The translations under genes were made by a program, and so were the position numbers. Shown here in pieces: positions 6,894-24,046 of a DNA stretch of 64,000 nt. A model generated the notes under the pieces. That model saw only the letters and a program-made list of their open reading frames with translations. It searched no databases and had not been told where the DNA came from. Origin of the DNA: a phage; sequence record PZ452611.1. One strand, 5' to 3'. The first letter of the stretch is position 1, and the number at the start of each line of letters is the position of its first letter.

Positions 6894-9800
6894 ATGCTTC
6901 CAATCCCTTTGCTAAAACTTGGTCGTCATTTCCTCGATAAGAGGGGTGGAATTAAGGAACTTGCTGTTCTGTCATACCCAATAGACAACAGTGATGGCAC
7001 AAGCAATACAGTATCCTATGTAAATAGCTTAGCTATACTTTTTGATGATGGTCAGCTTAATATTACTGGCTATAATAGGTTCGGAGAGTGTCGGACTGGA
7101 GATCTTGATACAATAAACTATCCTAATGAGGCAGCTTGGAACGTAGACCATGTTTGGAGAGCTGACCGTGCATTTGTAATCCGCACATTCGATAATAAAT
7201 TTTTCTATATTGGTTGCACAGCTGGTCTTATCGGATCGGAGGCAGCAGGTGGAAACGATGTTTGTGTCAGAGAGTGGACACCTTTGCCGGAACAGATCGT
7301 AACAGGGTTGCATTTGGACACCCATCCTGAGAGACTTGTTGAAGTAATGGGTGGCGTAAACAATACCGTGTGGGTAATTGCTGCACCAGAGGCTGATGGT
7401 ATGCTTCACCTGTACGGCTCTGGCAATAATACTTACGGCTCTCTTCATGTTGACAAAAGTCAACACGCTACTCCAGTTAAGATCGGTGAAACATCTGAAA
7501 GTCCAGAGACAGGTCCTTGGAAAAATCCAAGAATTAATTGTGAAGTTCATGACAACTCGGTTATTTTTGGTGGTCCTAACGGATTCTGGATTGCAGGTTA
7601 CGATTTCTTACGAAATAACAGCAAAAACACACTAGTTTATCCAGCCGAGCATGTGACTCTTGACCAGTTTAAAGGCATCCCGGTGGGCGAGACATGGAAA
7701 GGGTTCATGTGTGGACCTAATGGTGCAATTATAGCCACAGAAAGGATGCACAAACCTGATGACCAACAGCTTGTTAATGTGTTTTATGGTCAGGATGTTT
7801 GGGGTGACGACACGTGGAGAAGCCTTAACATCACCTATACCCATGAAGTAATTATGGCTCGCGGGTACGGGACTAGTGGAATTTTCTTCAATAATGGTAC
7901 AAAACAGTACCGTGGTTTCTCCAGAAACCTGTGTAACGATATTGGTGCTCAATCTGCTAATAATAGTCCTAGGGCCAATTTTATTCATTACAGAGCGCTG
8001 GCAACAGCTAAGTTTGTTGAACAGACAGAGCCAGTAAGCTGGACAGAAAGCGTTTATTTTCAAGGGATCCACAGGGAAGGTTTCTTAGGCACATTCTGTG
8101 TGGTAAATGGAAAGCTTTGGTGGTCAGGAATACCACGTGGTAGTTTTTCAGGATCTAATAACCTCTTTGGCGGCAGACTTAACAGCCAAGGGTTCACAGA
8201 GATTCCGGAGAATTGGTATAAAAATGTCCCGGTAGATAGCTGGGGTATCGAAGACATCTTTGATGTCAATGGTGTGAGCAATGTTAGCAACATTTACATC
8301 GGAGATACTGTCAAGATGAAATTGAAACCTCAGCCGGAGGGTGCTACGTTCATTATTGACAAGATTGAGTTGGTAAATGCTGCAGGCACTGTTGTTACAG
8401 ATGCAAACTATCAGTTCTCCACTAACTGGAACCATGGTGGTGCTAACGAAGTTGTGGTCACCCAGTATAACCGTAACATCAACAGACGTGGTTTGTATTC
8501 TATCAAGATCACCTACCATGACAAGCATGGCACTGGAAGAACCTATACGACAAGGACTTTGAACTGGAACACTATAGTTCCTGCGTATCCGTCCAACGGC
8601 AAGTGGCATACTGTCGGTAGAAACAAACAGTTCCATGTTAACGATACTGTATACTTCGGACTGAATGGGACTCAGCCTGCAGTAGAAGGGGATACATCGT
8701 ATATGGTCCGACTCCACAGAATGGATGCTGGATCAGTCACTTATGATGTTACCCAAGAGATTTATGATCAGAGACGAAATACCTACAACAACTTGGTGCA
8801 GACACAGGCCGTATGGGAGTTCAACCCTAACGGCAGAGGTGGTAAAATGTTGCAGGTTAACGAGCAAAACGGAACGTCGTTGACTGTCCACGAACACCCA
8901 GACCCTTGGCCTGATCCTGGAAAACCTCACCCTGGCGCTCGTACACTGAAAATTGTCAGCCATGATGTAGGATATTTCGGAATACGCTGGGAAGCTACAG
9001 TAAGATATGCCGACGGGACAACAAACAACATAGGGATCACTCTTGGTGGCACTAGTGAGGATAACTCACTGAAAATTGCCTACACTCCTAGAGGCATCTC
9101 TATTGACAATATGGATGTTGTTCGCAACGGTTACGGCGATGTGAATGTCAAAGTTACTCTTGGCGAACATCTTGGTGGGGAAAGGATCATCATGTATGCC
9201 TTTGATCATGATCCGCGCACCAATGGGACTTATGCAAATCAGGCATGGAGTTACCTGATAAATGCACCTGAGCCAAATACTAAAGAGTTCTACTATGGTA
9301 TGAAGCGAGATGTGTGCAAGAAAACAGGAACACATGATTGGATTGCTATCTGCGTTAAAGATGAGCGCACAGCTTGGGATGAGCCTGTTAACAGATGGTT
9401 CATAGGTATTCCTACCAGAAGTGATAAGTATGTCGCAGAATATATTGTATGCATGGGCGGTACCAACCTAAACATGTGTTGGAACGAAGATGTAAACAAA
9501 TACTCTGATTATGACTATATGAGGGATTACTCTTGTAATTTGTGGTTTAACCAAACTACAGGTTACCCTCCGCGTCAGGCAAGGGTAAATCCTGCAATCT
9601 TTACAGATACGCAGGTTTTCTTGACAAAACAGGCCAACGAGGTCCAGACCTTCAAGAACAAATACGACCCTAATAAGTGGTTCTATAACTGCTATGGGGC
9701 ATTTTTCTGGGGACCTGGAGAATTACCTGGTGGTGGCTCTTGTTTTGAGGCTGCAACTTACGCCAGTGACAGATTTATGGGCCAGGTCAAGAAATACAAG

Positions 9801-12530
9801 ATAATTCCAGGGCCTGAAACTTTAGGTAACGCTGTCGACCCCTATATCATCATGAGTGATCTAAGATCGAACATGGATGGAACATCCATATCTATGCAAG
9901 TTCCGGTAACAAACGGATACAAGCGTGTTGTGATGATCATTAAGTGCGATCTGATAGGTAAGCAAGTTCTTGCAGAGAACGGAACTTCCACCCACCTATT
10001 TGAGACTGCTCTGCACTATCAGTTTGCTGATTCACCTTTTGCAGGGGATAAGAGAATATCTGACACAGACGCTGTGCGATGCAAGAAATTTATGCTAGGT
10101 GGTGGGTGGTGGTGGTATGAATTTGACTTAACAGACAAATTCACCGACACATCTAAAGTGGTGACAGGACTTCGTCTAGACCTGGGTGAGAACATGCATA
10201 AAAGTGTTTGTGATGGCACCTACGGTGATCCTACGGTATACTTGAAGTATGTTTCTTTTGAGCACCCTGAAGATGTTGTTTATGGTCCAAAACTGAGGCT
10301 GTTTGGCAATTGGATTGCTAAAGACAGAGAAGGGATGGGTAGGAAGGTAAGAGGCTTCCTGGTCGATGCTGGCACAGAGGATATGCTGGTGAATGCGGTG
10401 TGGCCTGAATTACCGGGAACTCAGTGGGACAATTCTGCTAAGTCTATAAACTGGTTCAATATCCACAGAGCTATGTGGGCAACTAACTGCTATCTGTGGA
10501 AAGAGTTGAATGACGGCGCTTTCGGGTTTACTGGTGGCAGAAGAATGGCAATCATTTGCTGGACAACGCTGCAGAGATGTTATGACCATGACTATGAGAT
10601 TGGAGGCAGGGCATGGAAAAATATAAGGGATAGAATCATAACTAACTTTGCAGATCCTAACGGTGGCGGGGCGTATGGTTTCGACTGCAGCAGACTTATC
10701 CATTTGAACGGATCTTCGGCCTATAAGAAAGAAGGCTACTCCGGGTCCATGATTGAATGGGGCTTGGTAAAAGATGCTCGTGTGTTGATGGGTCAGCAAC
10801 TTGCTGCTGCAATAGGACCGAACGCAGTACAATCTGTTAAACCAGCGTGGTTCGATATCCCATTATGGTCCTCTGGAACACCAGGAACTGCTGCAATCAA
10901 CCCTACCACTGGGGATCTGGAAATCTCCTGGGAGGACTTGAAGCAGGTTGGTGGCTGGGATAAGACAGGGTACCAGGTGCAATGGTGGAGAGCTGACGGA
11001 TCTTTAGCCGCTGAGGAGTTTGTTAAGGACAATTTCTACACCATGTCCTCTGCAAAAGCACAGGAATTGTTCGGTCAGGCAGCTCCGTCAACGATCACCA
11101 TGTCTATGTGCTGTAAAGACAACAGGACTGGAGCTTTGGGGCCAAGGGTTGCTAAGGTTTTCTCAGGTATTAAATGGAATCTCCCTGTTCAAAGTGTTTC
11201 ATGGAAGCAAATAGGTGATAACAAGCTGCTGGTTACCCCCGCCTGTCAGTTCAACGCAACTCTTAACGTTGATCCTGCTGTTGCGGCAAACTCAGCTAAA
11301 GCTTCTGACTTCTCTGTGTCTAACACTGCTATGGCAGATGTGAGGAAGATTGACACACTGAACGCCAGAATTACCTGTAAAAACACTTATGGCACATTCC
11401 AGATTATCAACAACTTCACAGATGCTGATTCTAAGGTAGTGAGGACAGCAAGCCAGACTCTGAGTTTAGGAACTCTGGCCTATGCGGCCCTGATCACTGA
11501 ACAGTCGGCAACACTCCAAGGAGGTGGCGTAGGTAAATCTATTGCAACACCAGTATGGAAGCCAAATGAGTGGGTTGTATTTGATCTGGCTGTTGACTTC
11601 TCTAGCGATAATAACTGGACGTGGGTAAGGAATTGCTTACCTCAATTGATGGGTGGTCCAAGCTCTGTCAGCGATAGCCACGATTCTACTGACCCCAGCG
11701 TGTTCCAGGTTGGTAAAACTCACCCAGAGACGGGAGCAACGTTGCCTGACAGGAAGTATGCTTTGGTTTGCATCTCTTACGGAAAAGCAGATGTCACCTT
11801 CTCAGGGACACACACTTATAACGGAACTTACAACTTCTCAAGGAAGTATAGTCTCAAAGCAGGGAACATTATAGACGAGGTTGGTGTGCTGTATAATCCG
11901 GGCAACGGCATAGGGATTGTTGGTGGTAAACTGCAGATGCAGGAACCTTCTATTACCCCTTCCAACGTAGCCGGGATTAGAAAGACTTGGGAAAGTAGTA
12001 ATACCAACATTGCAACAGTGGATGCCACCACAGGACTGGTAACATTTAAAGCTACTGGGAATGTCACCATAAAGTTTGTAGTTACTGATGATGCAGGGCG
12101 CAAAACGTCTTCAACATCTTTTACTGTCAAACAGATGGCACCACAGTGGAGAATGTGGATAGGTACAGCAACAAACGGGGCATACCCTAATCCGGCAGGT
12201 ACTTCTGGTATGAAGACTTTCTCTACAAGCAAACCGATGGAGTACGGCAGCGGTCCTAAGGTAGGGCAGATGGTGTACTTTGGTGCGTATATTCCTGAAA
12301 TTATAGGGCTTCCGAGAAGTCAGCTTCAGTTGCTGTTTGGGGCTGGTGTTGACGATCTTGCCACTTTCGGGTATAGCGACAACATCGAGGCTGCAAGGAG
12401 TTCAGGATGGGTAGGGTTCAGAATGGAGTCTGGAAAGGAAGGCAGGATTCTAGGGACAGCCTCTATAGGTGTTATGTTCCCTGGTGACCAGCAGTATCGT
12501 CTAGAAGCCTACGCAACCTTTTCTCGTTAA
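6894..12530 (+). CDS. large virion-associated protein with Ig-like (Big_2-type) domain; putative tail/adhesin protein
   Basis: 1878-aa ORF; C-terminal segment ...IRKTWESSNTNIATVDATTGLVTFKATGNVTIKFVVTDDAGRKTSSTSFTV matches bacterial Ig-like group 2 pattern; N-terminal region has repeated G-x-x-G beta-propeller-like repeats (tentative); follows fibre genes. Confidence 0.65.
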   Translation: MLPIPLLKLGRHFLDKRGGIKELAVLSYPIDNSDGTSNTVSYVNSLAILFDDGQLNITGYNRFGECRTGDLDTINYPNEAAWNVDHVWRADRAFVIRTFDNKFFYIGCTAGLIGSEAAGGNDVCVREWTPLPEQIVTGLHLDTHPERLVEVMGGVNNTVWVIAAPEADGMLHLYGSGNNTYGSLHVDKSQHATPVKIGETSESPETGPWKNPRINCEVHDNSVIFGGPNGFWIAGYDFLRNNSKNTLVYPAEHVTLDQFKGIPVGETWKGFMCGPNGAIIATERMHKPDDQQLVNVFYGQDVWGDDTWRSLNITYTHEVIMARGYGTSGIFFNNGTKQYRGFSRNLCNDIGAQSANNSPRANFIHYRALATAKFVEQTEPVSWTESVYFQGIHREGFLGTFCVVNGKLWWSGIPRGSFSGSNNLFGGRLNSQGFTEIPENWYKNVPVDSWGIEDIFDVNGVSNVSNIYIGDTVKMKLKPQPEGATFIIDKIELVNAAGTVVTDANYQFSTNWNHGGANEVVVTQYNRNINRRGLYSIKITYHDKHGTGRTYTTRTLNWNTIVPAYPSNGKWHTVGRNKQFHVNDTVYFGLNGTQPAVEGDTSYMVRLHRMDAGSVTYDVTQEIYDQRRNTYNNLVQTQAVWEFNPNGRGGKMLQVNEQNGTSLTVHEHPDPWPDPGKPHPGARTLKIVSHDVGYFGIRWEATVRYADGTTNNIGITLGGTSEDNSLKIAYTPRGISIDNMDVVRNGYGDVNVKVTLGEHLGGERIIMYAFDHDPRTNGTYANQAWSYLINAPEPNTKEFYYGMKRDVCKKTGTHDWIAICVKDERTAWDEPVNRWFIGIPTRSDKYVAEYIVCMGGTNLNMCWNEDVNKYSDYDYMRDYSCNLWFNQTTGYPPRQARVNPAIFTDTQVFLTKQANEVQTFKNKYDPNKWFYNCYGAFFWGPGELPGGGSCFEAATYASDRFMGQVKKYKIIPGPETLGNAVDPYIIMSDLRSNMDGTSISMQVPVTNGYKRVVMIIKCDLIGKQVLAENGTSTHLFETALHYQFADSPFAGDKRISDTDAVRCKKFMLGGGWWWYEFDLTDKFTDTSKVVTGLRLDLGENMHKSVCDGTYGDPTVYLKYVSFEHPEDVVYGPKLRLFGNWIAKDREGMGRKVRGFLVDAGTEDMLVNAVWPELPGTQWDNSAKSINWFNIHRAMWATNCYLWKELNDGAFGFTGGRRMAIICWTTLQRCYDHDYEIGGRAWKNIRDRIITNFADPNGGGAYGFDCSRLIHLNGSSAYKKEGYSGSMIEWGLVKDARVLMGQQLAAAIGPNAVQSVKPAWFDIPLWSSGTPGTAAINPTTGDLEISWEDLKQVGGWDKTGYQVQWWRADGSLAAEEFVKDNFYTMSSAKAQELFGQAAPSTITMSMCCKDNRTGALGPRVAKVFSGIKWNLPVQSVSWKQIGDNKLLVTPACQFNATLNVDPAVAANSAKASDFSVSNTAMADVRKIDTLNARITCKNTYGTFQIINNFTDADSKVVRTASQTLSLGTLAYAALITEQSATLQGGGVGKSIATPVWKPNEWVVFDLAVDFSSDNNWTWVRNCLPQLMGGPSSVSDSHDSTDPSVFQVGKTHPETGATLPDRKYALVCISYGKADVTFSGTHTYNGTYNFSRKYSLKAGNIIDEVGVLYNPGNGIGIVGGKLQMQEPSITPSNVAGIRKTWESSNTNIATVDATTGLVTFKATGNVTIKFVVTDDAGRKTSSTSFTVKQMAPQWRMWIGTATNGAYPNPAGTSGMKTFSTSKPMEYGSGPKVGQMVYFGAYIPEIIGLPRSQLQLLFGAGVDDLATFGYSDNIEAARSSGWVGFRMESGKEGRILGTASIGVMFPGDQQYRLEAYATFSR

Positions 12531-16273: not shown

Positions 16274-16537
16274 TCAGAAACCCTCTAAAAAGCTCTTGTA
16301 GAAAATAATTTCAGTGTCCACACCTGTCACGATCTTATCGTTTCGGATCTCATCTGTGAGGTAGGTATCGAAACGTAGTACTTGTGTGGTATTGTCACAC
16401 ATCCACTCAGCTGTGACCATTGCGAAAATCTTAGCATCTTCATTATCTGGTGTGAATGTTACCACCTCGCCGCACTTAAACTTTTCGATAGGTTGAGTGT
16501 TAGCTTTCGGTTCTGCGATAGTGATTTTCGTGGTCAT
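16274..16537 (-). CDS. hypothetical protein
   Basis: 87-aa ORF. Confidence 0.4.
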   Translation of the reverse strand: MTTKITIAEPKANTQPIEKFKCGEVVTFTPDNEDAKIFAMVTAEWMCDNTTQVLRFDTYLTDEIRNDKIVTGVDTEIIFYKSFLEGF

Positions 16538-16803
16538 TACTCTTCCTCCATAGTTTCACCAAATACTTCGATACGAGCATCGAGCTCGGTTGCTTTCAGC
16601 TCCCCAACAAAATCTTTTAGTTCTTTCTCGTCCAGATCGTAAGCCCACACACAAGAAGAACATGCAGATTTCACAATCAGCAGCGTAGATACACGGCCTG
16701 ACTCTGTGATCATGCTCACAATGGTTCCAACAGGGAACGTGTTGATAGCTTTTTTAACTGGTCGTTCAGCTTTGATTACTACCTCTGTTGCCATAAATAA
16801 CAT
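16537..16803 (-). CDS. hypothetical protein
   Basis: 88-aa ORF. Confidence 0.4.
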   Translation of the reverse strand: MLFMATEVVIKAERPVKKAINTFPVGTIVSMITESGRVSTLLIVKSACSSCVWAYDLDEKELKDFVGELKATELDARIEVFGETMEEE

Positions 16804-16809
16804 CCTCTC

Positions 16810-18291
16810 TTACTTAGCGTACTCAATTAATTCCACAGTTTTCCCAAAGCTCGGGATATAATTTTTATTATACCCCTCGGTGAGAACCCATAAAGTATCG
16901 TACTTTTTCCACTTGTTGTCAACAGCCTTTTGTTCAAAGTTATGCTCAAAGTATAGGTCTGTCAATACGATGACATCTTTTGCATTCGGTATGTTGGCAT
17001 CCAGATACTCGAACACGCAAGCAGCTGTTGTGCCCCATGTTGAGTGGACCTCATAGTTGATCATCTCATCTATGTTACCGCGAGTGTATACTTTAACCTC
17101 TCCAACCTCAGTTGACCAACAGAACATTGTAACCTTAAACTCTTTATACAGATTGCACAATCCGGTGATTTCATTGAACATTTTCTTTAAAGTTCTTTGA
17201 GAGATCGAGCCAGAAACGTCTAAAGCTACCACAATATCTATGGTGTTTTCCGGATTACGACCAGGAACAATAACGTGCTGGTTCTTGTTTATAGCCCCAA
17301 CTTTTCGCATTGTGCTGGTCAAAGACCCAGATCGGCGACCAGGTTTTCTGTAGGTCAGTTCAGCCTTTCGTTTAGACAACATGCGTTGCTTGATGATGTC
17401 TATATAATTGATTACAGGCTTACCTTTATTCTTGACAAACTCACGAACCGCCTCAGGGCAACGGCCTCCGGAAGCTTGCATTGCTGCCTCCAGCATGTCA
17501 CCAGAGTCCTGCATGGCCTGATCTTTATCAGATTGACTGATTACAGGTTGTGGCTGATCATACCCCATAGCCTTTCCAAGATCATCACTGGTGCCACCGT
17601 TACCACTCATGTGATCATCGGTTTGTCGCTTATCTCCTTGAGAGTTCTCACCTTTACCGCTCTTACTTTTACCGTTATTCTGATCTCTTTGCTTATCAAG
17701 AACTGCATAGACGTTCTCAGCAATCCATCCATGAAACTTCATGTCGCAGTAGCAGCTGGCTAAGAATCCAAAAGGCTTACCTTTCACGAACGTAGTGCTT
17801 TTCCCCTTCGGGAAGAAAACACAAGGGGGCTTGCTAAAGTCAACCACAAGACCTGTGTTGATAACGTGATCACAAGCAATATTGAACAGTTCCGGCTCAA
17901 AGCTTTTACCACGGACCAGGTGATCACAGATAATATGTCCCACCTCATGTGACAGAAGGAAGGCCACCTCTTTCACAGATTTTGGGGAATAGAAAACTTC
18001 AGCCATCTCAAACTGCTCGTCAGTTAGAGAAGCCTTAAGAATAGCCTTGCGTTCATCAGCCAATCCCATAATGAACTCAGGACTGTAATAAATGCGTTTA
18101 TGGTCGGTTGCCATGGTGGAGCACCATGTGTGGTTTTCTACGAACTGCAACCCTGACAGTAGTGTGCCATAAAACGGCAGCTTTTCAAGGAGATACATAC
18201 GTGCAGCCTGCAACATTCTCAGGGCATCATCTTTCTGTGAGGCAATAATTTCTGAACTTCTGCTATCCATTAAAACTCCAGAAGGGGCCAT
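16810..18291 (-). CDS. vWA-domain protein with N-terminal HExxH metallopeptidase-like domain
   Basis: 493-aa ORF; HEVGHIICDH (HExxH zinc-binding motif) in N-terminal half; C-terminal VVALDVSGSIS (DxSxS MIDAS motif of von Willebrand A domains). Confidence 0.6.
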   Translation of the reverse strand: MAPSGVLMDSRSSEIIASQKDDALRMLQAARMYLLEKLPFYGTLLSGLQFVENHTWCSTMATDHKRIYYSPEFIMGLADERKAILKASLTDEQFEMAEVFYSPKSVKEVAFLLSHEVGHIICDHLVRGKSFEPELFNIACDHVINTGLVVDFSKPPCVFFPKGKSTTFVKGKPFGFLASCYCDMKFHGWIAENVYAVLDKQRDQNNGKSKSGKGENSQGDKRQTDDHMSGNGGTSDDLGKAMGYDQPQPVISQSDKDQAMQDSGDMLEAAMQASGGRCPEAVREFVKNKGKPVINYIDIIKQRMLSKRKAELTYRKPGRRSGSLTSTMRKVGAINKNQHVIVPGRNPENTIDIVVALDVSGSISQRTLKKMFNEITGLCNLYKEFKVTMFCWSTEVGEVKVYTRGNIDEMINYEVHSTWGTTAACVFEYLDANIPNAKDVIVLTDLYFEHNFEQKAVDNKWKKYDTLWVLTEGYNKNYIPSFGKTVELIEYAK

Positions 18292-18303
18292 TGGCCCCTG
18301 TCA

Positions 18304-19347
18304 TTATTTAACGTGTTTGAAAATACCTGCCAACTCGGTCATTGTCATGCGGGTGGTCTTCATAAGATCTGTCATAGCTTTCTCCATAATTGGAGATACT
18401 ACCATAAAGTTTCCTTTAGTGAAACCTTTATTCCAGTCGGTCACCAACAGTGGTTTAAGTCCAGCTCCGAGACGTTCACCAGTTAAAGCACAGCATTTGC
18501 GAATATACGAACTCTTAAATTGGCTGAACGACAGATCAACTTTCATACCTGCATCGTAGAACGTTTGACAATAGAAAGTGTAAGCCTTAGCAATCTCAAC
18601 ATCATCAGGCAGTGCAGGAACCTCTTCTGCAATCTCCTCTTCAACCTCCTGAGGCTCTTTTTCTTCTTCAGAGGTCTGTTCTTCAATTTCTTCTGTCACA
18701 GTCTCGTTTACGATGTCTGAAATGTGTTTGTTGGCTGCACGATCAGCCATGAAATTTTTAAAATCCTGCATCGGTGACATATCTTCTTCCTCTTCGTCAA
18801 ATAGTGCTAGTTTATCTTCTTCTGTCCCGTATTGCAAGATGAAATCTTCAAAAGTATAATCACCTTTCAATTTCTCCATACGCTCTTCGCTCAGGTGGAG
18901 CATCATCTGCTGGACAATTTTTCGATCAGTTTTGTCTTTAATCAGGATTGCAGTCTTTTTATCTACCAGACAGTCTTTCAGAGCATTGCACCTCAACCCT
19001 ACCACACAACAATTGTCAATTGCGTAAGGACCTTCATCATCTATACGCTCCAAAGATGGGTAGAAAGGATTTCCCAGTCCGTTCTCATCTGTGTGCATGT
19101 CGAAAGGTATAAGGGTGTAGTCGCATACCCCCTCCCCTAAAAGTTTTTTACCAAATAGGAGGTATTCTTCCCACGACAGGTCGAACTCTATATCTCGTTT
19201 CCGTGCGTTATTCTGTTTGCGTCTATATTTTTTGAGCAAGCGCTCTAACTCTTCTGGTGTATAATATTTTTCAAGATTCATGAGTTGTCTCTCGTGCTCT
19301 GTAAGTGAAGAAATCGTATCAATTGTCTCAACAGATGTCAACATCAA
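18304..19347 (-). CDS. HNH_3-like (His-Me finger) homing-endonuclease-like protein with acidic linker
   Basis: 347-aa ORF; SLERIDDEGPYAIDNCCVVGLRCNALK resembles the xRIDxxGxYxxxNxxxxxxxxN core of HNH_3 proteins, and shares RIDD-G-Y-DN with ORF 41963-42586; central poly-Glu stretch; start codon uncertain (TTG/ATG at 19347/19344). Confidence 0.45.
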   Translation of the reverse strand: MMLTSVETIDTISSLTEHERQLMNLEKYYTPEELERLLKKYRRKQNNARKRDIEFDLSWEEYLLFGKKLLGEGVCDYTLIPFDMHTDENGLGNPFYPSLERIDDEGPYAIDNCCVVGLRCNALKDCLVDKKTAILIKDKTDRKIVQQMMLHLSEERMEKLKGDYTFEDFILQYGTEEDKLALFDEEEEDMSPMQDFKNFMADRAANKHISDIVNETVTEEIEEQTSEEEKEPQEVEEEIAEEVPALPDDVEIAKAYTFYCQTFYDAGMKVDLSFSQFKSSYIRKCCALTGERLGAGLKPLLVTDWNKGFTKGNFMVVSPIMEKAMTDLMKTTRMTMTELAGIFKHVK

Positions 19348-19354
19348 AAACGTG

Positions 19355-19383
19355 TTGACTTTACTCTAAATCTCCGATATAGT
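19355..19383 (+). promoter_or_regulatory. sigma70-like promoter for + strand replication-module operon
   Basis: TTGACT - 17 nt - TATAGT about 40 nt upstream of ORF 19424 in a divergent intergenic region. Confidence 0.55.
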
Positions 19384-19423
19384 GCACCCATTCGAAAGAA
19401 AACCAACATAGGAGCACTCACTC

Positions 19424-20323
19424 ATGGCAAATCTTAACAGTTTTAGTACTCGGTGGCAACAGGATATAACAACCAATCTCTCAGCTGGAGACATCCTTTC
19501 TGCAATTTACGAGGCTTTAGATGCTAAAGCTACTTCAAAAGCGGTTTGTACCAACCCACTAATTCCTATAGTGATGAAGGTTATTGAGCGTAGATTGGTA
19601 TCTGGGTCTGATAAGTGGACATATTTAGATAATGAAGGACACACCTATTCCAACGGGTATGTCGATATAAAAGTAGAATACGCGGTATCATACCGCCGGA
19701 GCGGTTCTGTGACTTTCAACTTTTCTGGAGGTTTCCGATCTCTGGCAACTTCACCTTTTGTTTCCTCAGAAGAGAAGTTTGAACTTCCGTTCCTTTGGAT
19801 GATGGCTAACGCGACAGGAAAAACTCCCGTGAGTATTCGCGTAAAATACAACTACAACGGGTCCAGTAAGATCTATGCCGAGAGTATCTCAGCAAGTTTT
19901 TATTTTGTGATGGGAGATGGAATCCTCAAGCATATAAAGATGTGCGATATGCACGATGTTATAAATGAAGTGACTGATAAGAATGTTCTGGTGAAGGACC
20001 TCAACAATTTCTATACACCTGGGGACTATTACGTCAACCTCCCACTGTGCATCTTTAATGCCGCACACCCTTTGGGTGAATACCTGATCGTTAATAGTGA
20101 CATTGCTAACAACATTTTTGAACTGGCAAGAGTACAAAATGAGGTATTGACATCCTGCAAGAGTGGTGATAAATTCACTGATGAAGAGATGGGCGTTTTA
20201 GAAATGATGGGGTATAAATGCAGTCTTTGGGTAGATGAGGTGTTTAATGACTACATTTACGGACAGGATATTTACCCGTTAAAGAAGTATACTGATACAA
20301 GTTTAATTTATGCGGGGATTTGA
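19424..20323 (+). CDS. hypothetical protein
   Basis: 299-aa ORF, RBS aggag 8 nt upstream. Confidence 0.5.
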   Translation: MANLNSFSTRWQQDITTNLSAGDILSAIYEALDAKATSKAVCTNPLIPIVMKVIERRLVSGSDKWTYLDNEGHTYSNGYVDIKVEYAVSYRRSGSVTFNFSGGFRSLATSPFVSSEEKFELPFLWMMANATGKTPVSIRVKYNYNGSSKIYAESISASFYFVMGDGILKHIKMCDMHDVINEVTDKNVLVKDLNNFYTPGDYYVNLPLCIFNAAHPLGEYLIVNSDIANNIFELARVQNEVLTSCKSGDKFTDEEMGVLEMMGYKCSLWVDEVFNDYIYGQDIYPLKKYTDTSLIYAGI

Positions 20324-20598
20324 CTATGATGAAGGCATGTGGTAATGTATATTACGTCGGTGAGCATGTTCAGGCAGACAGTGTGTGGAAATCTATTAAG
20401 TCCACCACTGACGATGCCTTTCTGAGCGGGTTATGTTTTCCCAGCCCAGGGGACACTCTCCCTTACCCTGGAGATTTTGTTGTCAACAAGATGGACGGTT
20501 ATACCGTGTGCCTGATGGTTGAAAAAATCTTTTTAGACACTAGACACAATCACCGTCTTGTGTTAAAATTTCAAGAATGTAAAATGACAATTGCCTAA
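20320..20598 (+). CDS. hypothetical protein
   Basis: 92-aa ORF with ATGA start/stop overlap with upstream gene. Confidence 0.4.
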   Translation: MTMMKACGNVYYVGEHVQADSVWKSIKSTTDDAFLSGLCFPSPGDTLPYPGDFVVNKMDGYTVCLMVEKIFLDTRHNHRLVLKFQECKMTIA

Positions 20599-20611
20599 GG
20601 AGACCTTACCG

Positions 20612-20968
20612 ATGTCTAAAGTTACTTATCGTGCAGCTATTTACTGCAATGAACACCCAATCAATAATGATGGTCACTGCCTTTTTAAAGAAAATCAGTT
20701 GGGCTGTATTGTCCTCCCTGATGAAGGGGAAGGTTATCTGATTGCATTGACAGGGTTTGAGCCTGAAGCTCTGGAAGCCAATCTGGACTACCTGGTAGAA
20801 GAGGGTGCTGCAGACCTGGTTGCCAATGGCCTCCCCGTAAGCCTTGACGAAGTGGAGCGCTTCATGGGTAATTACCGTGTAGTGCGTGAGTTTACTATTG
20901 AGGTTGAAACTCCAGAGTGGGGCAGCCCTGAAACTAATGTCGAAGAAAAAGAAGAGGAGGTAGAATAA
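20612..20968 (+). CDS. hypothetical acidic protein
   Basis: ORF 20591-20968; ATG at 20612 preceded by AAGGAG chosen over the upstream TTG. Confidence 0.45.
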   Translation: MSKVTYRAAIYCNEHPINNDGHCLFKENQLGCIVLPDEGEGYLIALTGFEPEALEANLDYLVEEGAADLVANGLPVSLDEVERFMGNYRVVREFTIEVETPEWGSPETNVEEKEEEVE

Positions 20969-21225
20969 TGAAAGTGCAGATCTTGACTAATGCCGAGAAG
21001 ATGTTTATTGAAGATACACCTTTTGAAGCTGGTGAGCTACAGTTTGTTTATTTTGTTGACTTAGATAAGGTGTTTCCTGCACTGAATCTGGGTCTGGATG
21101 AAGTTCCTCATAAGGTTTTGTGCCAAGTTGTTCGTGCCTTAGCGGCAGATGGAGAGTTCCACACCCTTCAAGATATCCAGACCTACGGGTATCTTGAACT
21201 ACAACGAGAAGAAGAGGTGGACTGA
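20968..21225 (+). CDS. hypothetical protein
   Basis: 85-aa ORF, RBS gaggag upstream. Confidence 0.45.
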   Translation: MKVQILTNAEKMFIEDTPFEAGELQFVYFVDLDKVFPALNLGLDEVPHKVLCQVVRALAADGEFHTLQDIQTYGYLELQREEEVD

Positions 21226-21227
21226 TA

Positions 21228-21608
21228 ATGGCCCGGTGGAAGACAACAGTTGACCTGCATGATCAGTGGTTAGGACGCATCACTGAAGACGGGAAACTAG
21301 TGGAGTGGGACAATAAGCATGTTAGCGAGTTGGCAAGCATTGTGGCTGGCAAGTTACGCTCCAAGTTCCCTGAACAACTGGATCCTGATAGTTCAAAGTT
21401 CGATCCTGAGTTGGAGGATGTTGTATACTACTTCGACACCGTTGATGACTACGACGCGTGGTTTGCAGCACGGGAGCTTTACCCACAAGGCTCTGCTATG
21501 CGTCAGATGGAAGAAGATTATCCTCCGTGTGAGCAATTCAATAGTGCAATGACTTGCCTCTATGATTGGGCAGATAAGAACCTTGTCTGGATTCGGACTG
21601 CATTTTAG
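21228..21608 (+). CDS. hypothetical protein
   Basis: 126-aa ORF. Confidence 0.45.
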   Translation: MARWKTTVDLHDQWLGRITEDGKLVEWDNKHVSELASIVAGKLRSKFPEQLDPDSSKFDPELEDVVYYFDTVDDYDAWFAARELYPQGSAMRQMEEDYPPCEQFNSAMTCLYDWADKNLVWIRTAF

Positions 21609-21652
21609 TGGGCAGGAATGGCGGCAAGGATGCTGCTTAAGGAGTAGTAGAG

Positions 21653-21922
21653 ATGTTATACCAGCAATATGAACTTCGTGCAGAAAAAGAGTTAAATTTT
21701 GACAAAGATATTCACAGATATTATTATGGGAAAGTTAGAGGGCAAGCAAGAAAGTGTACTCCAACACTCTTTTATGCCAGCAGACGACTAGCGCCAGAAG
21801 AGGCAACAGCAGAAAGGGTTGCGTACAACTGGAGAGTCACGTATGATATTGACAGATCCGATGTGATATCTGTTTTGGAAAACTTTGAAAACACTTACAC
21901 ACAAGTAGAGGACTTTTACTAA
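21653..21922 (+). CDS. hypothetical protein
   Basis: 89-aa ORF, RBS aaggag upstream. Confidence 0.45.
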   Translation: MLYQQYELRAEKELNFDKDIHRYYYGKVRGQARKCTPTLFYASRRLAPEEATAERVAYNWRVTYDIDRSDVISVLENFENTYTQVEDFY

Positions 21923-23106
21923 TGTCAAGAAACGTATTCGAAAGTGGTCAAATCACTGTCCGTGAGTTGCCAGCTATTATTCAGTTTGCCCAACGTCATA
22001 GCCGATCTGTCCTAATTTTGGGACCAATGGGTGTGGGTAAAAGCCAGGTGATGAAGCAGATCGCTGATAATATGTTCGGTGAGCGAGATGACAACCTTGT
22101 TGACGTGCGACTGTCAGATAAAGATCCTGCCGACTTATCTGGGCTACCTATCCCTGTAGAAGCGGATGGAACTACACGTACAGTGTTTGCAATTCCAGAA
22201 TTTTGGCCTGCGGATCCTGACTGGAGCGGAATTATCTTTCTGGATGAGCTCACTCATGCAGATAACTACCTGCAAAAGGTTGCAATGCAAATTATGCTTG
22301 ACCACAAGTGCGGTACCTATGCATTCCCTAAGGGTTCTGTTTTTGTGGCTGCTGGTAACCGTTCTACAGATGGTGCGGTTCTTTCGGCGCTCGAAGCCCC
22401 TCTGGCTAACCGTTTTATCATTGTAGAGGTTACAAGCAATGCAGAGGTGTTTATTGAGGACTACGCATTCCTTAATGGGGTGCACTCCTCTGTAATTGGA
22501 TATCTGAAAAGAGTTCCATCAGCTATCGATAATTATGAGGCCATGGCTGAGATTAATTGTCCATCTTTTGCCACACCGCGATCTTGGGTTGCTGCATCTG
22601 ATATCTTGCACGATTTTGACAGCGGTATTATTTCTGACGCTATGGCCCGTGTTCTTCTGCAAGGTGCTATTGGTCACACTGCAGCGGTAGAGATCTGGAC
22701 TTACCACACCAAGAAACGCAACTTACCGGAAATCGGTCGGATTATGGCAGGAGGTTGCAAAGAATACGTAGGTCCTAAACAGCCAGACATCTTGTGGATT
22801 CTTGGATCTGAAGGTTGCATCGCTATTCGTAATATGATGGAAAATGCAAGTATCTCCGACGAAGATCTTGTTAGCTGTGTGGCAAACTTTCTCGATTTCC
22901 TTTGGGAAAACTTCAAGGACGAGAACCGAGATTTTGTATTTTCAGTCTTTATGGCGATGATGAAACCTAATGCCTTAGGAAATGCCTTGCTTATCGGTAA
23001 AGGTCGTGACAAGATCGTTGCTCAGCTGATCAAAGCATACCCAAACCTGATGAAGATTGTAAAAGAGTTTGGTGAAGAGTTTAGCGCCATTTTGGCTAAA
23101 GCTTAA
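21922..23106 (+). CDS. AAA+ ATPase, MoxR/CbbQ-like
   Basis: 394-aa ORF; Walker A LILGPMGVGKSQ, Walker B IIFLDELTHA, downstream sensor/Arg-finger-like region (AAGNRSTDGAVL); size and motif spacing typical of MoxR-class ATPases. Confidence 0.65.
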   Translation: MSRNVFESGQITVRELPAIIQFAQRHSRSVLILGPMGVGKSQVMKQIADNMFGERDDNLVDVRLSDKDPADLSGLPIPVEADGTTRTVFAIPEFWPADPDWSGIIFLDELTHADNYLQKVAMQIMLDHKCGTYAFPKGSVFVAAGNRSTDGAVLSALEAPLANRFIIVEVTSNAEVFIEDYAFLNGVHSSVIGYLKRVPSAIDNYEAMAEINCPSFATPRSWVAASDILHDFDSGIISDAMARVLLQGAIGHTAAVEIWTYHTKKRNLPEIGRIMAGGCKEYVGPKQPDILWILGSEGCIAIRNMMENASISDEDLVSCVANFLDFLWENFKDENRDFVFSVFMAMMKPNALGNALLIGKGRDKIVAQLIKAYPNLMKIVKEFGEEFSAILAKA

Positions 23107-23115
23107 GGAGGTTGT

Positions 23116-23496
23116 ATGGCTAAAGTAGGTAAGCGGGGAAACTACCTGGTGGTATTGACCGAGGAGCCGGAGAAGGAGTACGAATGCAGCTCCACTTGCG
23201 TGATCGATATCCGAGAAAAAGATGTAGATGAAATCTGGTTTAAAATATTGGACGCTTGCGACAGCAGTGATTATTTCTTCATCTATGTCAACGATAAGGC
23301 TGGGTTCTTCCATGACGACGGAGAGTTGCCGTATGAAATCTATGAACTTGTAGAGGCTTGCCATCGTGGAGATGCGGAGTTGTTTGGCTTACGGCTGAAA
23401 AGCGGTAAATTCTTCTATCAAGATGAGTGCATGAATCTTCATAACTTTGTAGAGGGAACTTGCAACGATGGAGAGATTTTGGCACACTACGATTAA
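23116..23496 (+). CDS. hypothetical protein
   Basis: 126-aa ORF, RBS aaggagg upstream. Confidence 0.45.
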   Translation: MAKVGKRGNYLVVLTEEPEKEYECSSTCVIDIREKDVDEIWFKILDACDSSDYFFIYVNDKAGFFHDDGELPYEIYELVEACHRGDAELFGLRLKSGKFFYQDECMNLHNFVEGTCNDGEILAHYD

Positions 23497-23509
23497 TTTC
23501 TAAGACCTC

Positions 23510-23536
23510 CCCCGCTTCGGCGGGGATTTTCTATTT
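23510..23536 (+). terminator. putative intrinsic terminator
   Basis: CCCCGC-ttcg-GCGGGG tetraloop hairpin followed by ATTTTCTATTT. Confidence 0.6.
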
Positions 23537-23545
23537 GGAGTTATT

Positions 23546-24046
23546 GTGAAAATTAAGATCTTTGCTATTATTTTGAGCGCATTTTTATCGCTGCCTGTTG
23601 TTGCAGCACCAAAACAAAAAGTATACCATACTTGCAAGCCATCAGATACTAAGGAAAACATTCTAGCATGCAATATCTACAGGGAAGCTAGAGGGGATGG
23701 CACGATGGGTATGCTGGCATCTGGGTTTGCCACCCTAAACAGGAAATCTCACCCCAAATACCCAGACACCATAAGAAAGATTGTCTACCAACCTAACCAG
23801 TTTTCGTGGACAAACCACGGCAAAACTTTTAAGGTGACAGAAAAAGATTCATGGGATCACGCTAAAAGTCTTGCAAAGATGCTTCTAAAGGTCTATAATA
23901 ACAACCATGTTGCATACATGGCTATGGACATAACAGGTGGAGCAACACACTACCATACAACCAAAGTACGACCGAAATGGGCAAAAAAGATGCAGAGGAC
24001 AGCTCAATTCGGGAGCCATATCTACTACAAGGAGCGCAATAAATGA
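23546..24046 (+). CDS. SleB-like cell-wall hydrolase with N-terminal signal peptide
   Basis: 166-aa ORF (GTG start after ggag); N-terminal MKIKIFAIILSAFLSLPVVAAP signal-like segment; NIYREARGDG...LNRKSHPKYPDTIRKIVYQPNQFSW matches the conserved core of the SleB/Hydrolase_2 family. Confidence 0.55.
   Translation: MKIKIFAIILSAFLSLPVVAAPKQKVYHTCKPSDTKENILACNIYREARGDGTMGMLASGFATLNRKSHPKYPDTIRKIVYQPNQFSWTNHGKTFKVTEKDSWDHAKSLAKMLLKVYNNNHVAYMAMDITGGATHYHTTKVRPKWAKKMQRTAQFGSHIYYKERNK

Follow-up and report, generated by a model that had tools for sequence, protein, structure and literature searches.

Pairs made up of a MoxR-type AAA+ ATPase and a protein with a von Willebrand factor A (vWA) domain have been described in several viruses. 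In group 2.2 jumbo phages, Iyer et al. (2021; PMC7824862) recognised a MoxR AAA+ ATPase and a vWA protein with an N-terminal metallopeptidase domain as a 'chaperone-cochaperone pair', for which they proposed a role in virion assembly. The same paper cites the MoxR-vWA pair p618/p892 of Acidianus two-tailed virus. In the N4-like phages (Schitoviridae), gp24 and gp25 are among 14 core genes. Here we analyse a 64,000-nucleotide stretch of phage DNA (sequence record PZ452611.1; hereafter the window), which carries on opposite strands a gene for a MoxR-like ATPase and a gene for a protein that combines a zinc-peptidase-like region with a vWA domain. These are genes gp4 and gp12 of Escherichia phage rV5.

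Judged by sequence comparison, gp4 and gp12 represent in Vequintavirus an ancient module of two genes, a MoxR-class ATPase and its cognate vWA/HExxH adaptor. We think it likely that the two products still work together. The reading as a whole joins identity, rearrangement and continued partnership and offers a mechanism as inference only; our confidence in it is somewhat better than even. The result is an annotation-level clarification. The components and their architecture had already been annotated or published, and the system is not in itself new. What is new, modestly, is the explicit link of rV5 gp4/gp12 to the N4 gp24/gp25 pair, the recognition of the split as a derived state of three genera, and the finding that the 'HNH endonuclease' label carried by gp12 is wrong.

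The locus in an rV5-type genome

The window belongs to an Escherichia phage V5/rV5-type genome (Vequintavirus). The 7 kb compared (positions 16500-23500) match Escherichia coli O157 typing phage 5 (KP869103) with 100% identity and differ from Escherichia phage V5/rV5 (DQ832317, NC_011041) by a single additional base and a single substitution. Identity of at least 90% to this stretch is seen in about 120 Vequintavirus genomes. The open reading frame (ORF) at 21922-23106 on the + strand is rV5 gp4, and the ORF at 16810-18291 on the - strand is rV5 gp12. The genes are divergent and 3.6 kb apart, with the vWA gene to the left of the ATPase gene in window coordinates. A preliminary description made from the sequence alone had placed the two on opposite strands with a gap of ~3.6 kb, and the ORF coordinates bear out both statements. 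It had also put an HNH-like gene between them. That gene is present, and is the Srd-like gp11, but it is one of seven ORFs in the interval (gp11 and gp10 to gp5), not the only one.

The database comparison also turned up sixteen 'Campylobacter phage' records (MG0656xx, host given as Campylobacter jejuni) that share 96-99% identity with rV5-like phages of E. coli over the 7 kb. The host labels of these records seem doubtful.

Distribution and linkage of the two genes

In a tblastn search of 50,697 phage records, 813 matched the ATPase and 671 the vWA protein; for most host genera the two counts were alike. The matches of both proteins include N4-like podophages, in which the vWA protein is labelled 'N4 gp25-like', as well as RaK2-like and PA5oct-type jumbo phages. 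rV5 gp4 is 27% identical to N4 gp24 over 355 amino acids (aa) (E 3e-28), and gp12 is 22% identical to N4 gp25 over 419 aa (E 2e-20). The N4 genes are adjacent and on the same strand.

The same linkage was seen when loci were collected with the ATPase profile from IMG/VR. This survey gave 80 loci, 71 of which had room to judge the downstream gene. The vWA gene follows the ATPase gene immediately and on the same strand in 68 of these 71, with a median gap of ~72 bp between ORF bounds. Two of the remaining three are split, one rV5-like and the other Mydovirus-like, and the third was left unassigned. Adjacency in related phages, for which the preliminary description had suggested a survey, is therefore what such a survey finds, and homologues of the two genes do co-occur.

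A parallel survey of bacteria gave 80 loci, mostly chromosomal and in Campylobacterota, 77 of them with room to judge. The genes are adjacent in 67 of the 77, and in six more the vWA gene lies 2-5.5 kb downstream. The order of ATPase and then vWA gene is also found in Sulfurivermis, in metagenomic phage contigs and in RaK2-like jumbo phages. The closest cellular homologues of the pair occur as units of two genes on the chromosomes of Campylobacterota (Sulfuricurvum, Sulfurimonas and Aliarcobacter; loci L092-L170). Around 40% of the Campylobacterota loci have a ~240-aa protein downstream or a ~450-aa repeat protein upstream, neither of them annotated. Clustering of the neighbours in these loci produced no consistent third partner and no informative enzyme.

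gp4 is a divergent MoxR-class AAA+ ATPase

The ATPase gene (21922-23106, + strand) is the N4 gp24 homologue and encodes 394 aa that match phrog_1297 ('ATPase') at 2.2e-110. GenBank record DQ832317 already calls rV5 gp4 'MoxR ATPase'. The Walker A motif, GPMGVGKS, occupies residues 34-41 (22021-22044, + strand), and the Walker B motif, IIFLDE, residues 104-109 (22231-22248, + strand). In an alignment of 26 homologues, G37, G39, K40 and S41 of the former and D108 and E109 of the latter are invariant. N146, R147, R164 and R220 are invariant in the same alignment, and Asn146 is a candidate sensor-1. Homologues at ~34% identity to gp4 (E ~1e-44) carry AAA_3, AAA_5 and bpMoxR. Among the 26 homologues, AAA_5 (best 2.4e-9) and AAA_3 (best 1.2e-8) are matched by 11 and bpMoxR by 5. 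A profile of the family matches the AAA modules of midasin at 5e-11, and a direct sequence search of the PDB with the single ATPase protein returned P-loop matches only.

We also modelled the ATPase with AlphaFold2 (predicted local distance difference test, pLDDT, 86; predicted template modelling score, pTM, 0.80). In the model, residues 102-108 form beta-3, which holds most of the Walker B motif. A hairpin predicted at residues 75-90, between beta-2 and beta-3, corresponds to the helix-2 insert, and a short hairpin predicted at 128-137, ahead of beta-4, to the pre-sensor-1 hairpin. Helix-2 insert and pre-sensor-1 beta-hairpins are the hallmark of the clade that contains MoxR, the chelatases, midasin and MCM. 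The top ranks of a Foldseek search with the model are NorQ (9qh4 to 9qhg), CbbQ (6l1q, 5c3c) and the Cytophaga MoxR structure 2R44, with E values from 6e-8 to 2e-5 and target-normalised TM-scores of 0.68 at most. We conclude that gp4 is a divergent MoxR-class AAA+ ATPase. The MoxR-type Walker motifs reported earlier for this ORF thus hold up, both in their invariance and in the closest solved folds, NorQ and CbbQ.

gp12 joins a zinc-peptidase-like region to a vWA domain

The gene for the vWA protein, the N4 gp25 homologue, lies on the - strand at 16810-18270. The longest ORF extends to 18291 and encodes 493 aa. Translation probably starts at the eighth codon, ATG 18270, because a GGAG Shine-Dalgarno sequence precedes this ATG and homologues begin at the equivalent Met; the protein would then have 486 aa. 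Residues are numbered here by the 493-aa ORF. Pfam finds DUF2201_N (2.8e-28; 99.7 bits, cut-off 23.2) followed by DUF2201 (VWA-like; 3.6e-11; 43.7 bits, cut-off 26.4). The DUF2201 family consists of PF13203 and PF09967, and in gp12 the N-terminal and C-terminal domains stand in the expected order.

The zinc-site motif HEVGH (HExxH) spans residues 115-119 (17935-17949, - strand) and is invariant in an alignment of 30 homologues. Beyond H115, E116 and H119, residues H124 (17920-17922), R127 and D141 are also invariant in this set. The vWA domain covers residues ~348-488 (16828-17250, - strand) and has a complete metal ion-dependent adhesion site (MIDAS). The site consists of D358-x-S360-x-S362 (DVSGS, residues 358-362; 17206-17220), T421 (17029-17031) and D445 (16957-16959), all on the - strand and all invariant in the 30 homologues. 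The preliminary description had read ORF 16810-18291 as an HExxH N-terminal region with a C-terminal vWA MIDAS (DVSGS). Both Pfam domains score above their cut-offs, and the MIDAS and HExxH residues on which that assignment depended are retained throughout the alignment.

The NorD vWA domain is among the structural matches of the modelled gp12 vWA domain. A direct PDB sequence search with the single vWA protein gave no match. In two fold searches with the full-length model the vWA domain dominated, and these gave no independent assignment of the N-terminal fold. gp12-type proteins of Vequintavirinae carry a ~40-aa insertion, two helices in the model, directly ahead of the HExxH helix (residues ~76-105; 17977-18066 in the window). 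This insertion is missing from N4-like, bacterial and most metagenomic homologues.

RefSeq and phrog_1314 label DUF2201 vWA proteins 'HNH endonuclease'. The label is attached to gp12, to N4 gp25 (locus L090, 3165-4307) and to the proteins at 9958-11142 of locus L172 and 7372-8781 of locus L171. We rejected it for gp12. The whole length of the protein is taken up by DUF2201_N, a linker and the vWA domain, and no HNH family was found in Pfam (E up to 0.01) or NCBIfam (E up to 0.1). On gp12 and its homologues the label appears to be a propagated misannotation, which recognition of gp4 and gp12 as a pair corrects across the many records that bear it. Searches of NCBIfam and PADLOC otherwise yielded nothing useful and no tie to known defence-system proteins.

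The split of the pair

In Certrevirus phages the vWA gene comes directly after the ATPase gene, both on one strand. Phage A5-4 has the same order, with an HNH homing endonuclease gene inserted between the two. The divergent arrangement occurs only in Vequintavirus, in Seunavirus 4MG and in Mydovirus-like Klebsiella phages, with gaps of 3.4-4.4 kb (L006, L007, L010 and L011). In these split lineages an Srd-like gene lies just upstream of the vWA gene. Comparison of the sequences thus places the split as a derived state common to the three genera.

Both proteins rank the relatives of the phage alike. The split genera come first, at 47-53% identity, then A5-4 and Certrevirus at 35-38%, and then all others. 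Across 37 genomes the pairwise identities of the two proteins correlate (Spearman 0.64). Because both proteins give the same order of relatives, the vWA gene was co-inherited with the ATPase gene. We had considered a separate acquisition of the rV5 vWA gene and rejected it, since the two rankings are identical. It is very probable that one co-inherited pair was split by an old rearrangement. This was also the proposal of the preliminary description, and comparative genomics, through adjacency in relatives and matching identity rankings, supports it.

The position of a third gene suggests how the split may have come about. In the split lineages the ATPase arm also carries the gene for SleB, a SleB-like cell-wall hydrolase (23546-24046 in the window) that in rV5-type phages has rIIA as its neighbour. 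A5-4 and Certrevirus have SleB on the opposite, leftward arm (L008/L012, ~1930-2470). The change of arm and the split pair together fit an inversion that spanned the bidirectional promoter region, and the simplest model would place one of its breakpoints between the two genes. The rearrangement would have occurred in an ancestor shared by Vequintavirus, Seunavirus and Mydovirus-like phages, and would have put the genes on opposite sides of a bidirectional early promoter region.

The junction between the two genes has been entered elsewhere. Homing endonuclease genes sit exactly between ATPase and vWA genes in A5-4 (L008, 11285-11779) and, together with three small ORFs, in PA5oct (L172, 8406-9902). 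The junction may be a recurrent insertion site. A separate observation concerns L091, a 2.3-kb contig from a Succinivibrio metagenome-assembled genome. The ATPase that it encodes shares 59% identity with that of rV5, and the ~800 bp that follow contain no vWA gene. The contig is probably a fragment of a Vequintavirinae-like phage with the split arrangement.

Timing, mechanism and alternatives

Both genes of the pair lie in the region next to rIIA and the Srd-like gene, behind sigma-70-like promoters. N4 gp24 and gp25 have been reported as middle genes, and they stand in a non-late context near rIIA/rIIB, among nucleotide-metabolism and replication genes. The PA5oct cluster gp97-gp186, which includes the copies of the pair if the numbering of the record and that of the paper agree, has been reported as early. 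The promoter sequences, together with the early or middle expression reported for N4 and PA5oct, speak for a non-structural role of the pair. The same promoters and timing lean against a late role in virion maturation. Although now in separate arms, gp4 and gp12 are probably still expressed together, early in infection.

A mechanism can be sketched from the analogous systems NorQ-NorD, CbbQ-CbbO and midasin. As a hexamer, the ATPase would dock the vWA domain, and the metal site of the MIDAS would hold a client protein by one of its acidic residues. Hydrolysis of ATP would then remodel the client, which the zinc domain might cleave or process. On this analogy the pair would act as a two-polypeptide ATP-dependent protease or maturase. 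The HExxH glutamate is the general base of zincins, and its invariance suggests that the N-terminal domain does cleave or process the client. The peptidase mechanism is a tentative proposal, and we lean somewhat against it. The timing gives about an even chance that the client is early and non-structural, either a host protein or a non-structural phage protein and not one of the virion. The most specific form of the mechanism is a two-polypeptide, ATP-dependent, MIDAS-targeted zinc protease with which N4, rV5 and RaK2-like phages would cut a specific host or phage protein early in infection, the MoxR ring passing the client, caught by an acidic residue, to the HExxH domain of the adaptor. We regard this form as doubtful; if true, it would give the N4 core genes gp24 and gp25 a function.

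Instead of acting early, the pair could be a virion-assembly chaperone with a processing peptidase, one that folds, assembles and proteolytically matures structural proteins, as Iyer et al. (PMC7824862) proposed for jumbo phages. Such a role is known for the p618/p892 pair of Acidianus two-tailed virus. The RaK2-like phage fEgEco12 would fit this role, since its pair ends a structural gene block, after tail-tube, head-closure and other structural genes, and in the PA5oct record the ATPase is flagged ESI-MS/MS. Against it stand the early region and promoters of the window genes, their neighbours rIIA and the Srd-like gene, the middle timing of N4 gp24/25 and the early timing of the PA5oct cluster. 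Neither gp4 nor gp12 is in the mass-spectrometry list of rV5 virion proteins, which is short. We consider an assembly role unlikely. A further possibility is that the pair inserts a metal cofactor or activates an enzyme in the manner of NorQD, CoxDE, CobST and CbbQO-like systems. The HExxH domain would then bind metal or dock the client instead of cutting it, with a metalloenzyme of the phage or the host as client, for instance one of nucleotide metabolism. NorQ/NorD and CbbQ are the closest solved structures, and the pair recurs beside genes for dCTP deaminase, thymidylate synthase, thymidylate kinase or an HD phosphohydrolase. Cellular copies are chromosomal in Campylobacterota and Sulfurivermis, and one Sulfurivermis copy lies near a ferrochelatase gene. 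However, an invariant HExxH glutamate fits catalysis better than simple metal binding, and no single neighbouring enzyme is conserved across lineages; we find metal insertion quite unlikely.

It is also conceivable that the split uncoupled the two genes functionally, each having kept or gained an independent role, or that the vWA gene is decaying. The genes are in different transcription units 3.6 kb apart, and the deposited rV5 sequence (DQ832317/NC_011041) has an extra A after window position 17021, besides a T-to-C change at 17945. The extra A shifts the frame just after MIDAS Thr421, inside the vWA domain, so that the gene is annotated as two, ORF12 and ORF13. This frameshift either stems from an error in sequencing or is a genuine mutation that inactivated the gene in the laboratory derivative. 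The vWA gene is intact in the window and in typing phage 5, and among the records compared base by base the single extra base is seen in DQ832317 and its RefSeq copy. Moreover, 119 phage records match the vWA protein at 95% identity or more by tblastn, with full-length matches in all eleven such records listed. Both genes are kept in every split lineage sampled despite 44-53% identity between genera, and their catalytic residues are all intact. That the genes are unlinked yet co-retained argues that selection acts on both, and functional uncoupling is very improbable.

Several points weigh against gp4 and gp12 being a split module whose halves still cooperate, and against the mechanism sketched for it. 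The interaction of the two proteins is itself a putative one. In Pfam, the P-loop matches of gp4 are all below threshold (AAA_5 scores 16.7 bits against a cut-off of 22) and AAA_3 is not matched. Because these scores are sub-threshold, 'MoxR-type' cannot be read from a direct domain match. Around the HExxH helix, the gp12 family profile matches minigluzincin MJ1213 and M48 peptidases weakly (E 0.003-0.2), and the literature yielded no experimental peptidase activity for DUF2201_N. If the rV5 frameshift is real, the vWA gene is dispensable in the laboratory. The place of the fEgEco12 pair at the end of a structural block and the ESI-MS/MS flag on the PA5oct ATPase count here too. In the synteny test, no flanking genes besides the pair and SleB were detectably homologous between split and adjacent lineages, and the inversion stays an inference because these genes have diverged too far. 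Finally, the promoter calls are consensus matches, and thus predicted.

Neighbouring genes, promoters and hairpins

The Srd-like gene gp11 lies directly upstream of the vWA gene at 18304-19281 on the - strand. It matches phrog_3118 at 2.7e-111, and the assignment is shared by the rV5 annotation and paper. Weaker matches of gp11 are to the Srd/decoy-of-sigma70 and endonuclease VII families. Whether it starts at ATG 19281 or at the annotated 19239 is uncertain. Six ORFs, rV5 gp10 to gp5, fill the + strand between the divergent promoters and the ATPase gene (19424-21922), as judged from ORF calls, Pfam, PHROG and the rV5 record. ORF6 is the only one of these detectably conserved in the Mydovirus and Seunavirus loci. 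Some existing labels in this interval stand out. rV5 gp10 (19424-20323) is called a 'putative alpha 1-3 fucosyltransferase', for which Pfam and NCBIfam give no support, and it belongs to a PHROG of unknown function. The 89-aa gp5 (21653-21922) is labelled 'ATPase' in RefSeq without domain support.

A consensus scan of the divergent intergenic region predicts back-to-back sigma-70-like promoters on the two strands (19313-19383). The leftward promoter, TTGACA-17-TACGAT (19341-19313, - strand), coincides with P11 of the rV5 record. The rightward promoter is TTGACT-17-TATAGT (19355-19383, + strand). The scan predicts a further sigma-70-like promoter, TTGACA-17-TATTAT (11/12), inside ORF5, ~200 bp upstream of the ATPase gene (21699-21727, + strand), and the rV5 record places the sigma-70 promoter P4 just upstream of gp4.

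Between the stop codon of the Srd-like gene and the start of the vWA gene lies a GC-rich hairpin, AGGGGCC-AAT-GGCCCCT (18283-18299), which is a perfect palindrome. It covers the upstream in-frame ATG at 18291 and may serve as a partial terminator or as an RNA-stabilising hairpin. A second, terminator-like hairpin was found by sequence scan after ORF3, downstream of the ATPase gene (23510-23525, + strand).

Comparison with known systems

A literature search for experimental work on DUF2201, N4 gp24/gp25 and phage MoxR-vWA pairs turned up descriptions of genomes and, beyond these, only the proposal that Iyer et al. made by computation. Genes of the gp24/gp25 type belong to the core of N4-like phages and turn up in bacteria as well as in many large virulent phages, without a demonstrated function. 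Vequintavirus, which includes phages of the BASEL collection, is a tractable group of E. coli phages for the genetics of the pair, and its natural split shows that each half can be expressed and handled apart from the other.

The likeness to FtsH-type AAA+ zinc proteases is a functional analogy only. Both systems put an AAA+ ring together with an HExxH zinc peptidase, but FtsH, a member of the classic AAA clade, carries its M41 peptidase on the same polypeptide and lacks a vWA adaptor, and homology is seen only at the P-loop. NorQ-NorD and CbbQ-CbbO are nearer, as the best structural matches of the ATPase and as systems with a MIDAS-bearing adaptor. Sequence identity to these is only 16-21%, and in contrast to gp12, NorD and CbbO are without an HExxH domain. 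The model of the phage ATPase also has an extra C-terminal helical region (residues ~270-394) that is missing in NorQ and CbbQ.

Among viral pairs, that of Acidianus two-tailed virus, compared here by description, likewise joins a MoxR protein (p618) to a vWA protein (p892). It differs in belonging to an archaeal virus, in having no peptidase domain and in its action in extracellular tail development. The jumbo-phage pair of Iyer et al. has the same two-protein architecture as gp4 and gp12, whereas the rV5-type genome is 138 kb and carries its genes split and in an early-type region. The closest likeness is to N4 gp24 and gp25. Both proteins are homologous over their full length, the domain architecture is the same, and the genes share a non-late context near rIIA/rIIB. 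The N4 genes are adjacent and co-directional, whereas those of rV5-type phages are divergent and 3.6 kb apart, and unlike N4 gp25 the peptidase domain of Vequintavirinae has the extra ~40-aa insertion ahead of its HExxH helix.

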